Part shown: piece by piece, positions 19,238 to 28,316 of the stretch
Numbering within the stretch: position 1 is the first letter of the stretch
How the letters are laid out: each line of letters starts with the position of its first letter
Assembly (NCBI GenBank): GCA_030295235.1
Contig: AP026154.1
Span: forward strand, 248,001-312,000
DNA: 64,000 bases
Direction: 5' to 3'
Source: Fistulifera solaris
Taxonomy: Eukaryota
Position numbers and translations under genes: made by a program
Notes under the pieces: generated by a model
Databases searched by the model: none
What the model was told of the DNA's origin: nothing
The model's input: the letters and a program-made list of their open reading frames with translations, nothing else

Positions 19238-21115
19238 CTACATCATACCGCCCATTCCACCCATGCCGCCCATTCCTCCCATGGGTGGGCCTCCACCACT
19301 GGGCTCTGGATTGTCCACAATCATACTCTCCGAGGTAGTCAATAGACCTGCCACAGAGGAAGCATCAACGATAGCCGTACGTGTGACTTTGGTGGGATCA
19401 ATGATACCTTGTTCGACCATGTCGCAGTACACGCCATTTTGGGCATCAAAACCGAACGTGACGGGAACGTCAGCTTTGGTCAATTCACCACAAACAACAG
19501 CGCCTTCGTGGCCAGCATTCTTCGCAATTTGCGAAATTGGTGCTCGGAGCGCGCGCATGATAATTTCGACACCAATCTTTTGATCCATATTGGTAGCCTT
19601 ATCGGCAACTTCCTGCAACTTGGTCGAGCAGTAAAGAAGCGCCTTACCACCACCAGGCACGATACCTTCCTCCACAGCAGCCTGAGTAGCATTCAAGGCA
19701 TCAATGACACGATCTTTCTTTTCCTGTACTTCAACATCGGACGCACCACCGACATGAATGACAGCCACACCACCGCCGATCTTGGCCAGTCGCTCTTGCA
19801 GCTTTTCGCGCTCGTAATCACTCTTGGTAGTTTCGATGGAATGACGGATAAGTTCACAACGCTCCTCAATCACGGCCTTGTCACCGGCACCATCTAGAAC
19901 AATGGTGTCATTCTTGGTGATGGTAACCTTTTGCATTTGCCCAAATGTTGGGGCTGGACTTCTTCCAATTTCATGCCCATCTCTTCCGAAATGACGGTAC
20001 CGCCCGTAAGAATGGCCAGGTCTTGCATGGTGGCTTTGCGGTTGTCCCCAAATCCAGGTGCCTTAACGGCACATACTTTAATGCCCGCACGGAGTTTGTT
20101 AACGACCAAAGTCGCCAAAGCTTCGCTTTCGACGTCTTCGGCAACAATGAGGAGGGACGCCTGACTCTTAATAACCTGTTCCAAAAGAGGCACCAGTTGC
20201 TGCAGATTACTGACTTTCTTTTCCACGAGCAAGATGTAAGGGTTCTCCAACTCGCAGACTTGTGTCTTGGCATCGGTAATGAAATACGGGCTAATGAAAC
20301 CCCGATCAAACTTCATTCCCTCCACAACTTCCAATACATTCTCGAGCGTCTTGCCGTCTTGTACGGTAATGACACCTTCCTTTCCGACTCGTTCCATGGC
20401 ATCGGACAGGAGATCACCAATTTCCTTATCCGAGTTGGCACTGATCGTACCCACTTGACTGATTTCTTCCTTGGTACTAATGGGTCGACTGATTTCTTCC
20501 AACGTCTTGACGACCGTTTGCACGGCCAAGTTAATACCACGATACAGATCCAACGGATTCAATCCGGCCGCCACCGACTTGCAACCTTCCGAATAAATGG
20601 CCCTAGCGAGTACGGTGGCCGTAGTAGTTCCGTCTCCGGCAATGTCGTTGGTTTTGGATGCGACGCTCTTGATGAGTTGAGCACCCATGTCCTCGAATTT
20701 GTCTTCAAAATCAATCGCCTTGGCGACAGTGACGCCGTCTTTGGTGATTTTGGGTGGACCGTATGGTTGTTGAATGATGGCATTGCGTCCTTTCGGACCG
20801 AGTGTGACCTAAAGGGAAAAGAAATTGCCATGTAAGAGAGGGAGGATCAGGAACGTCAAAACACGAAAAGGTCGAAATCCAGATTTACAAGAGAAACAAA
20901 GATCCAAATTCCCTCTTGTACGACCGCTACGTAGCAATTCTGCGTACATAAGGAATCTCGAATTCACGATTCCTTACCTGGACCGCATCGGCCAACACAT
21001 CCACACCGCGCAACATGGCGGCACGCCCTTCCACGCCAAATTTGATCTCCTTGGCAAAGCCACGAGAAATAATTCGTGCCTTGCGTGTTTGATGACGAAG
21101 AGTAGAAGTCAACAT
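19238..21115 (-). CDS. HSP60: mitochondrial chaperonin 60
   Basis: Presequence then [27 protein letters not shown] and a GGM tail. Intron 20809-20977. One-base frameshift at 19929-19932. Confidence 0.97.
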
Positions 21116-23453: not shown

Positions 23454-23590
23454 CGGGAAGTCGAATGACGAGGAAGAAGGAGAAAGGCGTTGATTGTGGA
23501 GTGATGATGTGATAACATCGCGGCGAAGAGCCACAGGAAGAATTTGCAACAAGATGATGAATATAAATGGCACCGGAAAGCTGAAGACAT
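22241..23590 (-). CDS. TPR-like protein with C-terminal SAP domain, probably plastid-targeted
   Basis: Signal peptide plus INA-FL cleavage-type motif; poly-Thr from (GTT)16 at 23406-23453; TPR-like YVWQAGLALYY and AWYYLGLHYDAVG; SAP motif LRDALRAKGIPGTGTKAELVQRL. Confidence 0.8.
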
Positions 23591-23759
23591 GGTTGCGAGG
23601 GTATGTTACAGGCAATTAGAGTCTCAAGTGCAACAAAATTCAAGAAAACGAGTCATAAACATAAAAAGGAACGCATAGGATTGTAGTAGCATGTCCATAA
23701 ATCATCATGAAAATGAACTTTATCACTTACCGTTGCGTTCGTTGTATGGCAGGCGCTGC

Positions 23760-23876
23760 AGGAAAATCTGGAGGAGGGGTTTTTCAAGTTTCCAGAAAAT
23801 CTGGGAATGTGGTAATTTCTGGTACCCAGAAAATCTGGGAGTGTGATGTTTTCACCTTCACAGAAAATCTGGGCGG
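23760..23876 (+). repeat. degenerate 34-bp tandem array, 4 cores (CA)GAAAATCTGG
   Basis: GAAAATCTGG starts at 23762, 23795, 23829 and 23863 (spacing 33, 34, 34). Confidence 0.85.
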
Positions 23877-24018
23877 TAAACATAGGTGCAAAATATTCAC
23901 TCGTCCACATTGCGACAAAATCGCCCTCATCCAAACGACTTTAGATACTATCTTCGACAATATTAATTGACATTTTTACTTTCTTTCCCTTACCAAAATC
24001 AACAAACAACAAAAAAAA

Positions 24019-26961
24019 ATGGAGTCAATAGTCCTTTCGCCACATGCCTTAGTATGGGAAGCCTCGTGTCATGGTTGTTCGTATTATTCTCCCGAACTGC
24101 TCAACTGTTTGTGTGACGACCACACAACGACGAAGAATACTCTTTCCTATTCTCAAATGTACGCATGGGTGTCGCATTTATCACGACAAATTCATGCATC
24201 TTTGTTCAAGAATACTCCAGGAAACACCGTATTCCGACAATATCCGGTGATCGTGTCGATTCCGCAAGGACCTTTGTTACCCATCGTGATCGCCGCCGTC
24301 CATGCCGCCAATCGATATCCAACAGCGAGTGCTATCTTGATTCCTTGTGACTTGACCACGGCAACGACACAATCTACGATTCTGCAATCACTTCGACCGA
24401 CTTTGATATTAGTGGCGAACGAAACGGATGCTTCCATTGTACAACAGCAACTCGATCGGATGAACGCATCATTATCATCGCACGTGCGAAACTATCGTTC
24501 AGATATACCCGTTTGGCAAGCCAGCAAACCTCGCATTGTCAATGTATTACACGAATGGATGATTCCGTTTCAAACCATTGTACAAGAACAAATCCAACAA
24601 CTCATCAATGCACCAACTTGCCAACATTTCCAAGAACAAATTCATGCCTACGATCCCATCCAAGATATAGCACCCCCGGAACGCTTGTCGCACATTGTCT
24701 TTACATCGGGTACATCAGGAACACCAAAAGGATGCTGTTCTTCTCGACAAGCCTTGCAACATTACATTCAATGCAAAAATCAACGGCACCAGATCGATTC
24801 GAAATCCTACGTTGCCTTGGCCAGTCCTTTGTCGTTTGATCCGTGTTTGGGCGATATTTTGGCGACGTGGACAGCCGGAGCAACACTGGTGTTGTTGCTG
24901 TCCTCCAACAAATCATCATCATGGCCCGTGACCCACATTTTGTGCACACCCACGTGGTGGAATCATTACGGCTGGTCGAACGCCGCCTGGCAAGTCATTG
25001 CGTTAGGAGGAGAAGCCATTCCACCAAAGATGCGCACTGGAACCCAATGGCCTCTACATGCGACCTACGGTGTCACGGAAGCCTGTGTGTATCAAACCAT
25101 GGGACCTATTGGCACAGCAGACCTTAAGAATCATGTGGGGACTCCGTTTTCAGGTGTGGCACTTTCGATCGTATCCGAAACAGATTCTTGGGAATTTCTT
25201 ACCCCCACAAGAGTCGGAGAAATTGTCATTTCGGGGACATTGGTCGATCGTTTGTCGGGGTACTGGAATAATGACGATGCTGCCAATCCTAAATTCATTC
25301 AGCACCAGCAAGTTTATTCTTATCGAACCGGGGACCGTGGTTATTTTGACAGTGCCACCAACGATTGGGTGGTCATGGGACGGATCCAAGGACAAGAGGG
25401 CATGGTCAAGTATCAGGGAGTGCGCGTGGAATTGAGCGAAATTGAGAGCGCTCTCTTGCAGGCTGTGGGAATTGTGCGCGATTGTATCGTAGTGGCCCAA
25501 AAGGACGACCAGGATACGAGTACGGCTCACACTTTGGTAGCTTACTTGGTACTAGAAGAGACGTGTCGACGGGAATTGTTGTTGTCGCACTCGGAACCGG
25601 CACCCGCTCTGTTGTGTACTTCCGGCCCTTTATTGACGTTACTGCATGGACGTTGTCAACGAGGCGCGCGAGTCATTCCAACAGCATTTGTGATTGTCCC
25701 AAGTCTTCCCATGTCTCCAACCGGCAAACGAACGACTGTAGGACTCCCGAAAGAATGGTTTCCCATGGATTCTCCCGAGAGTCAATTGCACTTGAGTGAA
25801 TATGGTTTGCCTGTAGGACAATGGTTGGCCGAGTCGTTGCAAGAATGTTTGAACCTTTCGCACCATCGAAGGGTTTTGACCGTCGCCGCCACCTTTGGAA
25901 CCTTGGGCGGAGATTCCTTAGCAGCGACACGCGTCGTTCGTGCATTGTATGCTCATCATGCGTCCGTCGACAATACACGTTTCTTAGGCGGTGACTATGG
26001 AACTTTACCAGGAGATGCGTTTGCACCGGTGCATCTATTGCGGGCACGTAATTTGGGCGCGTATGTGGATTTTCTGATGTCACAAGGTATAGGAACGGGT
26101 AAGACGGACCATTCACCACCAACGGACTCGGCGACATTGAAGGAGGAAAATGCATTACTGACAAGCACACCCGCAAACGGTAATTCGAGTTCCGATACTA
26201 TTTGGTACGACGCGTTGCTTGAAGCACTCCAACAGGGACAGTGCGAAATCGCCAGCGCCTTGTTGCAACTGGGCGCACCCGCACAAGACCCCACTGTCAT
26301 GACTGCTACAACGTCGGGCAAACGAGCCCGCTTGGGCAACATTTCCAGTCGCAACGAACGACGCAAACACTTTCAATCCACACCACTGCATGTGGCCTGC
26401 GTGAAAGGTCGATATTCTATAGTGTCAAGTTTGATTCAAAAAGGAGCGCGTTGGAATATTCCCGATGCCTCGGGTTTGTATCCGTTGCATTTAGTCGCGT
26501 GCAGTCGAACTCATGACACCAGCGAAGAAGAACGATGGAAGTGTTTAGAATGCCTCTTGGCTGCCGGTGCACCCTTGACTATCAAAGATGGCAATCAACA
26601 AAGTTTGTTGCACGCCGCGGCTCGCGCCGGACATACCTTTCTATTGCAACAATTGCTGACACTCTGGCGGAACACGAGTCTCCGCGGCAGTTCCTTGGAA
26701 GACCGTTTGCAATGGCGGGATGTCTGGTCTCGTACGGCCGTCCATTGGGCCGTCTTGAATGGGCACTGGGAGGCTCTCCAGGTCTTGTTGGAAGCCGGAT
26801 GCGATCCCCAACCTTTGCTACCGCACAAGCAGAAACGTTCCAGTGTGGCTTTGGAAACACCCCTAGAAATGAACGATCGCCTTTACCGTCATGACAATCC
26901 TGAATTGCACCAACAAATGCAAAGGCTGCTACAAGAGGCGATGGAAAAACGAGAGAAATAA
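24019..26961 (+). CDS. NRPS-like adenylation domain + carrier protein + ankyrin repeats (AASDH-like A domain)
   Basis: A-domain motifs FTSGTSGTPKG, ASPLSFDP, YGVTE, YRTGD, RVELSEIE and PMSPTGK; carrier motif LGGDSL; ankyrin motifs TPLHVAC, YPLHLVAC, SLLHAAA and TAVHWAV. Confidence 0.9.
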   Translation: MESIVLSPHALVWEASCHGCSYYSPELLNCLCDDHTTTKNTLSYSQMYAWVSHLSRQIHASLFKNTPGNTVFRQYPVIVSIPQGPLLPIVIAAVHAANRYPTASAILIPCDLTTATTQSTILQSLRPTLILVANETDASIVQQQLDRMNASLSSHVRNYRSDIPVWQASKPRIVNVLHEWMIPFQTIVQEQIQQLINAPTCQHFQEQIHAYDPIQDIAPPERLSHIVFTSGTSGTPKGCCSSRQALQHYIQCKNQRHQIDSKSYVALASPLSFDPCLGDILATWTAGATLVLLLSSNKSSSWPVTHILCTPTWWNHYGWSNAAWQVIALGGEAIPPKMRTGTQWPLHATYGVTEACVYQTMGPIGTADLKNHVGTPFSGVALSIVSETDSWEFLTPTRVGEIVISGTLVDRLSGYWNNDDAANPKFIQHQQVYSYRTGDRGYFDSATNDWVVMGRIQGQEGMVKYQGVRVELSEIESALLQAVGIVRDCIVVAQKDDQDTSTAHTLVAYLVLEETCRRELLLSHSEPAPALLCTSGPLLTLLHGRCQRGARVIPTAFVIVPSLPMSPTGKRTTVGLPKEWFPMDSPESQLHLSEYGLPVGQWLAESLQECLNLSHHRRVLTVAATFGTLGGDSLAATRVVRALYAHHASVDNTRFLGGDYGTLPGDAFAPVHLLRARNLGAYVDFLMSQGIGTGKTDHSPPTDSATLKEENALLTSTPANGNSSSDTIWYDALLEALQQGQCEIASALLQLGAPAQDPTVMTATTSGKRARLGNISSRNERRKHFQSTPLHVACVKGRYSIVSSLIQKGARWNIPDASGLYPLHLVACSRTHDTSEEERWKCLECLLAAGAPLTIKDGNQQSLLHAAARAGHTFLLQQLLTLWRNTSLRGSSLEDRLQWRDVWSRTAVHWAVLNGHWEALQVLLEAGCDPQPLLPHKQKRSSVALETPLEMNDRLYRHDNPELHQQMQRLLQEAMEKREK

Positions 26962-27124: not shown

Positions 27125-27622
27125 TCATTCACTCGTCCCAATTTGGGATCGATGCATGTGTACATTCCTCCATCCATCCATATTTTTGTTTTGCCAAATG
27201 CGAGTTTCTTCATATTGCTTCACTTGCACGGCACCGTTTTCCGAGACAAATTGTACCAAGCGTACATAACTAACGACTGCGGCATGTTGTCCCAATAGGC
27301 GAACATGCGGTCGAGCCATCGTATTGAGACAGCTGGGTGTCGTTTCGGAATGAGGCAACAAATGCGACGGACTCGCTAGAATGCTTTTATTCTTTTTGGC
27401 TGTAGCACTACTGGCACTTTGTTGAAAATAGAACTTGTGGAAATCAGTACCTTCGATCAAATGACCAGCCGCTTCCGGTTCAAAACACGTAATGGTCGAA
27501 TCGACGTATTTTTCGTACGAAACCCAATCATTGCGAGCAATCGCCTCCAACAGTTCGTAATTCGCTTTCATCACATCGTGTACAATGTGTTGATACATTT
27601 CGTGATCAGATGTAATCGACAT
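27125..27622 (-). CDS. stand-alone CaMKII association (hub) domain protein, NTF2-like
   Basis: LLEAIARNDWVSYEKY, TCFEPEAAGHLIEGTDFHKFYF, PHVRLLG, SYVRLVQ, EETRIW and VHMHRS match the CaMKII hub consensus. Confidence 0.88.
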   Translation of the reverse strand: MSITSDHEMYQHIVHDVMKANYELLEAIARNDWVSYEKYVDSTITCFEPEAAGHLIEGTDFHKFYFQQSASSATAKKNKSILASPSHLLPHSETTPSCLNTMARPHVRLLGQHAAVVSYVRLVQFVSENGAVQVKQYEETRIWQNKNMDGWRNVHMHRSQIGTSE

Positions 27623-28045: not shown

Positions 28046-28316
28046 GGTCATACAGAAATTCTGAGGACAGTCCAGAAAATCTGGAATAGTTCTTGGTCAT
28101 ACAGAAATTCTGTGGAGGGTCCAGAAATTCTGGACCATCGGTGTTTGAGCCATACCAAGTACAGAGGAAGATCTTTGGAGGTTTGAGAGAAATTCCGAAA
28201 TCGATGTTTGGGGTCATTAAGATAAGATTTTGGGACGTTCCAGATTATTTTTGGAGATGATTGAAGTTGTTCCAGAAAATTCAGGAGCTGGTGTTCTTCT
28301 TCACACAGATAATCTG
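28046..28316 (+). repeat. cluster of CAGA-WWW-TCTG palindromes including a 49-bp-period duplication
   Basis: GGTCATACAGAAATTCTG...GTCCAGAAA(A/T)TCTGGA at 28046 and 28095; GGTCCAGAAATTCTGGACC at 28118-28136; ACAGATAATCTGT at about 28305. Confidence 0.8.

Follow-up and report, generated by a model that had tools for sequence, protein, structure and literature searches.

An adenylation-carrier-ankyrin protein of Fistulifera solaris belongs to a widespread eukaryotic family and may hand a small amino acid to a protein partner

AASDH (ACSF4-U26) consists of an adenylation (A) domain, a carrier (T) domain and a β-propeller, and activates β-alanine. To our knowledge, no acceptor for AASDH has come to light since its activity was described. 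Single-module NRPS-like enzymes with the layouts A-T-R, A-T-R-R or A-T-TE, PtNRPS1 among them, likewise contain an A-T unit without a condensation domain and occur in diatoms (PMC13194791, PMC7073580). These enzymes end in a catalytic reductase (R) or thioesterase (TE) domain. The terminal domain of another A-T protein, Ebony, has an acetyltransferase-like fold. In the available text of PMC10531068, Ebony is a single A-T module with a non-canonical, amine-selecting terminal domain. A diatom enzyme of the A-T-R1-R2 type has been characterised and is distinct from the protein described here, as far as the accessible sections of the article go (PMC13194791), and the available part of PMC7073580, which does not contain the word ankyrin, puts the number of further A-plus-carrier proteins of Phaeodactylum at three. 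Ankyrin repeats also serve acyl carriers and transferases. According to the excerpts at hand, they recruit the protein substrate in zDHHC17, where they are joined to an S-acyltransferase (PMC9800311), and in ACBD6, where they are combined with an acyl-CoA-binding domain, they engage NMT2, a partner enzyme (PMC7046191).

The protein described here is a variant of the single-module NRPS-like enzymes in which ankyrin repeats, rather than a reductase or thioesterase, form the end of the chain. The features of the gene are given in Table 1.

Table 1. Features of the A-T-ankyrin gene and its product. Positions are those of the window, the whole 64-kb stretch of DNA that was analysed.
Feature	Positions	Strand	Basis or remark
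Single-exon ORF, 980 aa, adenylation-carrier-ankyrin (A-T-ANK) protein	24019..26961	+	One stop, terminal
Adenylation core domain, ~residues 38-457; pocket code DPGLAGTVYK	24130..25389	+	Pfam and motifs
A3 motif of adenylation core	24688-24732	+	
A4 motif of adenylation core	24817-24843	+	
A5 motif of adenylation core	25060-25080	+	
A7 motif of adenylation core	25321-25335	+	
Adenylation C-terminal subdomain, ~residues 458-576	25390..25746	+	Pfam match below cut-off
Catalytic Lys570 (A10)	25726-25728	+	118/118 aligned rows
Carrier (T) domain, ~residues 598-688; Gly-rich insertion past the Ser helix	25810..26082	+	
Phosphopantetheine site Ser633 in carrier	25915-25917	+	118/118 aligned rows
Disordered linker, residues 695-723	26101..26187	+	pLDDT <50 in full-length model; partly <50 in T-ankyrin model
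Ankyrin domain, residues 725-977, six helical hairpins, two basic inserts	26191..26949	+	

A preliminary description of this gene had read it as one uninterrupted frame with complete A-domain motifs, a phosphopantetheine site, at least four ankyrin repeats and no condensation or release domain. Most of this reading stands. The frame is open to its single stop. Motifs A3, A4, A5, A7, A8 and A10 (Lys570) were clear, but A2, A6 and A9 were degenerate, and to that extent the motif set is incomplete. In a Pfam scan of the ORF, AMP-binding matched residues 38-416 (E 1.4e-25) and ankyrin models covered residues 786-937 (best E 2.7e-18). AMP-binding_C (18.2 bits against a cut-off of 24.5) and PP-binding (15.7 bits against 20.8) fell below their cut-offs, as did TIGR01733 on the A domain (E 3e-45). 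The phosphopantetheine site is upheld by the invariance of Ser633, and PP-binding scored above the cut-off in 4/5 relatives scanned (P0471, P0271, P0516 and P0538). The ankyrin part contains five TPLH-type motifs plus an N-cap and forms six helical hairpins in the AlphaFold models, in line with the count of at least four repeats, and the C-terminus of the protein is ankyrin by Pfam as well as by fold. The Pfam scan of the ORF identified no condensation, thioesterase or reductase domain, nor the tail of two reductase domains seen in PtNRPS1/ATRR (A-T-R1-R2). A missing upstream module was considered and rejected. The flanking genes lie on the opposite strand (start at 23590 upstream, end at 27125 downstream), and the N-terminal motif is also the starting point of the relatives; the protein is therefore whole.

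The nearest named protein was FisN_15Hh150 of F. solaris, 89% identical over residues 200-940, and close relatives with 72-89% identity keep the same reading frame. AMP-binding and ankyrin families were both present in 120/120 rows listed (the best 120 of 581 matches), where the named rows were pennate and centric diatoms. A search from distant members reached the choanoflagellate Acanthoeca, and in a further search 96/120 rows among the matches listed combined an A domain with ankyrin repeats. The architecture search across eukaryotes that had been proposed in the preliminary description was productive: besides diatoms and the choanoflagellate, the layout occurs in green algae (Cymbomonas and, as read from its EukProt label, Tetraselmis), haptophytes (Diacronema, Pavlovales), dinoflagellates (Symbiodinium, Polykrikos), amoebozoans (Balamuthia, Soliformovum) and about a dozen chytrid fungi. 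Condensation, thioesterase and reductase Pfam families were absent from the 120 plus 96 rows listed, whose lengths run to ~2000 aa. Relatives of the gene are transcribed, since several of the records are transcriptome assemblies by label. Pattern scans, which can miss members, found 8 loci in prokaryote genomes, all matching the ankyrin part only, and 17 loci in viral contigs, none reaching past residue 651; neither scan found a locus with both parts. This distribution is compatible with patchy retention since an early eukaryote and equally with later transfer between protists.

Databases already list the layout. The ESM Atlas has two clusters of it, both confined to eukaryotes and automatically named, and many database hits are labelled acyl-CoA synthetase; such synthetases are stand-alone ligases, whereas this protein has a fused carrier with an invariant serine. 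No PDB chain with both the A-T and the ankyrin part was among the best 60 matches listed per sequence search. The architecture is apparently unstudied, as the preliminary description had supposed: no study of an A-T-ankyrin protein was found in the open-licence literature, outside which most subscription journals lie, and a search of the same literature for an ankyrin-bearing NRPS in Euglena gave no match. According to the available text of PMC6361889, however, fusions of monofunctional PKS/NRPS domains to HEAT, ankyrin or PPR repeats are frequent in Symbiodiniaceae, which are dinoflagellates. Acyltransferase-ankyrin fusions are described in the accessible part of PMC8283056. In the portions available, PMC10794256 and its four supplement files mention ankyrin only in a transporter table among the matches listed (2 of 12 for 'Ank'), and PMC7557087 and PMC8106346 contain nothing relevant to A-T-ankyrin proteins.

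Conservation was scored over 118 aligned members, chosen by hand and mostly of full length. Ser633, Lys570 and the ankyrin residue Arg954 are invariant (118/118), which indicates selection on the chemistry of the family as well as on a binding surface. Asp274-Pro275 and Tyr358 were each found in 117/118. The Gly-rich insertion after the carrier serine helix is specific to the family. Two C-terminal types could be distinguished. Diatom-side rows carry a basic insert ahead of the last repeat. In 51/62 non-diatom rows the last 50 residues form a conserved Cys tail in which one Arg is invariant and the terminus reads Gly-Gly-x-Gly-x-Thr, the Cys having been part of the search pattern; this tail is absent from diatom-side rows, including the present protein. 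Both types occur in Polykrikos, each as one protein. Two members carry additional domains. P0516 (1274 aa, 2 cluster members) has an N-terminal DnaJ domain and CSL zinc finger, a Dph4-type layout, ahead of the A domain and may be a merged gene call. P0538 (1404 aa) has additional ankyrin repeats, with an OST-HTH/LOTUS domain at its C-terminus.

The resemblance of the A4 region to AASDH, pointed out earlier, was examined with AASDH-type loci fetched by motif scan, of which seven were used (propeller verified in 4/7, assignment by motif and clade in 3/7). Asp-Pro at code positions 235-236, found in 117/118 family rows, was present in 5/5 AASDH-type rows covering this region and in only 16/546 other A domains; judged from these sequences, the likeness of the A4 region is real. 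The AASDH pocket code (DPVQAGLCWK, locus L095) is identical to that of the present protein (DPGLAGTVYK) at 5/10 positions, with an aromatic residue at 331 in both, and differs at the other 5/10, including 239, 278, 322 and 330. The C-terminal PF13570 propeller of AASDH is replaced in the family by ankyrin repeats; Pfam did not find PF13570 in the 980-aa ORF, while the same model scored 384 bits on the AASDH-type locus L075. The protein is like AASDH in layout, but because it has no propeller it is not a member of AASDH. The A cores share a mean identity of 25% with AASDH, less than the 29% with bacterial NRPS rows, a set chosen for being the best hits. Scored with the family profile, the best AASDH row reached 141 bits and the best bacterial domains ~240 bits. 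Among 23 candidates scored in the F. solaris genome, the best PF13570 match had 35.9 bits, well short of the cut-off of 133, and a propeller query gave no match either, so that AASDH was not found in this genome with these queries.

An A-domain phylogeny had also been suggested. The family formed one clade in both trees, comprising 23/55 rows in one (SH-aLRT 97) and 12/30 rows in the other (support 100/98), from which 25 long-branch, partial or redundant rows were left out; Lys2, Ebony and ATRR are not among the named sequences in these trees. AASDH formed a separate clade in each. Nevertheless, a single clade of AASDH plus the family was not rejected by the AU test (p = 0.478), and the two were joined in 26% of 200 bootstrap trees.

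In AlphaFold models the A-T part folds as an NRPS A-T unit, and its best structural matches in a fold search were NRPS A-T units. The ten-residue pocket code was read by motif register against GrsA numbering. The code DP[G/S]xAGTVYK is constant from diatoms to chytrids and amoebae, pointing towards a single substrate. An aromatic residue at 331 is common to the family, the AASDH rows (7/7) and two bacterial rows whose code we take to be a glycine code, and occurs in 122/463 other A domains. The retained Asp235, the aromatic residue at 331 and the variable position 278 suggest a small substrate, although a longer one could also fit, since residue 239 is small. A substrate the size of Gly, Ala or β-Ala has, in our estimate, an even chance of being correct. 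With regard to the chemistry itself, the protein very probably has adenylation and thiolation activity.

The preliminary description had suggested a protein partner for the ankyrin repeats, and their putative binding face is indeed conserved. R954 (118/118), R905 (117/118), W910 (117/118), R869 (114/118), E946 (113/118), N914 (111/118), W903 (107/118) and Q861 (104/118) stand out. The conserved non-scaffold residues are located at repeat positions 3, 5, 10, 13 and 14, which we take from designed-ankyrin work to be the target-binding face. In unrelated ankyrins (123 repeats, 11 sources), W at position 3 (4%), R at 13 (0.8%) and E/Q at 5 (<2%) were rare, while R at 5 (33%), W at 10 (20%) and N at 14 (46%) were common. 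Being basic and aromatic, the groove would suit a small anionic ligand no less than a peptide.

An AlphaFold model of the T and ankyrin domains (residues 588-978), built on 76 family rows, gave a pLDDT of 89.7 and a pTM of 0.85. The ankyrin part makes up 66% of the residues in this chain, and by an arithmetic estimate two independent domains would be expected to give a pTM of ~0.63. We read the higher value, reached across a disordered linker, as a confident placement of the carrier against the ankyrin repeats of the same chain, a docking taken from pTM alone in a model that does not locate the interface. On this evidence the carrier probably docks on the ankyrin domain of its own chain. The top covariation pair was inter-domain, E609-R782 (1.43 against 1.10), in a shallow alignment of 200 rows (effective 126 sequences). 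Inter-domain pairs made up 37% of all scored pairs, without clear enrichment, and charge pairing at 609/782 was not significant (Fisher p = 0.55). A two-chain prediction of the carrier with the ankyrin domain scored 0.00, in a run in which the alignment was unused and the controls were not folded, and counts neither for nor against docking.

We propose that the A domain would adenylate one small amino acid, which would be loaded on the phosphopantetheine arm at Ser633. The loaded carrier would then dock on the protein's own ankyrin domain, as predicted, and the conserved Arg/Trp face of that domain would hold a protein acceptor, or a partner enzyme, that takes the cargo. As a whole, this sequence of loading, docking and hand-off to a protein held on the repeats is tentative, standing just short of even in our judgement. 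If the enzyme is active, the chance that the receiver is a protein is a little better than even. Since the ankyrin domain is predicted to dock its own carrier, it may itself be the terminal module and not only a tether for a partner. If it truly is, carrier unloading would take a new form here, and proteins might be modified in a way not seen before. ACBD6 and zDHHC17, in the parts of those articles available, resemble the proposed role in that their ankyrins bring a protein partner together with an acyl thioester carrier or transferase. They differ in their fatty-acyl cargo and have neither an adenylation domain nor a phosphopantetheinylated carrier, and are analogues, not homologues. A more far-reaching version, an ancient eukaryotic aminoacyl-transfer system in which the ankyrin domain takes the place of the condensation domain and positions a conserved protein acceptor for a novel modification, is somewhat unlikely; if true, an undescribed amino-acid modification of proteins would exist in algae, amoebae, chytrids and choanoflagellates. 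The single pocket code and the few invariant surface residues make both substrate and acceptor directly testable.

The same predicted docking could serve other ends. The ankyrin domain might bind a small-molecule acceptor such as an amine, a nucleotide or an inositol or sugar phosphate, and the enzyme alone would then make a small amide or ester in the manner of Ebony, whose terminal domain is of another kind. The invariant charged residues R954, R905 and E946 could bind or activate such a ligand, and the conserved Cys tail ends most non-diatom members, but not this protein or its diatom-side relatives. The ankyrin sensor domain of RNase L binds oligonucleotide, and this nucleotide-sensing domain was the top match in the ankyrin fold search; it was tied, however, with generic repeats (Z 20.8 vs 20.6), and the search yielded no specific ankyrin relative. 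We also know of no catalytic ankyrin repeat, which counts against this explanation, and we regard it as unlikely. Alternatively, loading of the carrier could switch its contact with the ankyrin domain and so expose or hide a signalling surface, with no transfer taking place. The lack of a release domain in cis and of a condensation match in the genome search agrees with such a sensor, as does the predicted intramolecular contact; in the available text of PMC7046191, the ligand of the ACBD6 carrier modulates its ankyrin module. A covalent thioester with no release step would nevertheless make a poor reversible sensor, no output domain is seen, and the idea is decidedly unlikely.

An RNA or a component of translation could be the acceptor, given an ankyrin face rich in Arg and Trp and the single members fused to LOTUS (P0538) or to the Dph4-type DnaJ-CSL zinc finger (P0516). 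These fusions are only 2/96 of the A-plus-ankyrin rows listed, and stem from short contigs with automatically called genes, where neighbours may have been merged; we give this acceptor very little probability. Only slightly more probable, and still highly unlikely, is that the family functions while this copy is degenerate or inactive. The A core is 7 residues short between A4 and the next conserved motif (37 residues against a family norm of 44, the length in 84/108 rows measured), a deletion common to other Fistulifera-like rows; model confidence is lower over residues 311-370, and the gene was found once in a genome with many paired genes. Against this, the 980-codon frame is uninterrupted and shared by the close relatives, and every invariant family residue is kept.

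Proteins of the window that were scanned (nine plus thirteen) are of housekeeping types, for example a chaperonin, an AAA ATPase, a kinase, a carrier and proteases, and a biosynthetic gene cluster was ruled out on these neighbours. An ACPS-family transferase of 339 aa, of the phosphopantetheinyl-transferase family, is encoded twice in the F. solaris genome. The genome search for a condensation domain, a lower bound, gave no match. The A-T-ankyrin gene was found once, by protein and by DNA search. NRPS-like modules that are single-copy and conserved across eukaryotic supergroups behave as housekeeping enzymes, not as secondary metabolism, and this family is a second case beside AASDH, in tractable microbes.

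Many other genes are paired on paired contigs (C5/C6, C11/C12, C25/C26, C38/C39). C38 and C39 also carry another, distantly related pair of genes with adenylation and carrier parts (L006 and L009), which lack the usual pocket aspartate. Three read runs, X1 to X3, come from one study and were mapped to contigs only. X1 covers genes and spacers equally and behaves as DNA. X2 and X3 cover neighbour genes and not the A-T-ankyrin gene; X2 has a spliced joint at 20806-20976. The chaperonin-60 gene (19238-20835, minus strand) is split over two frames near 19894-20062, a break that may be an assembly error because X1 shows one extra base behind 19928. Convergent with the A-T-ankyrin gene lies a gene for a stand-alone CaMKII association (hub) domain protein of 165 aa (27125-27622, minus strand). 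A short dispersed repeat is present in both spacers (23750-23900 and 28050-28250); read depth over the latter is 222 vs ~20, and the repeat is probably a small mobile-element family.
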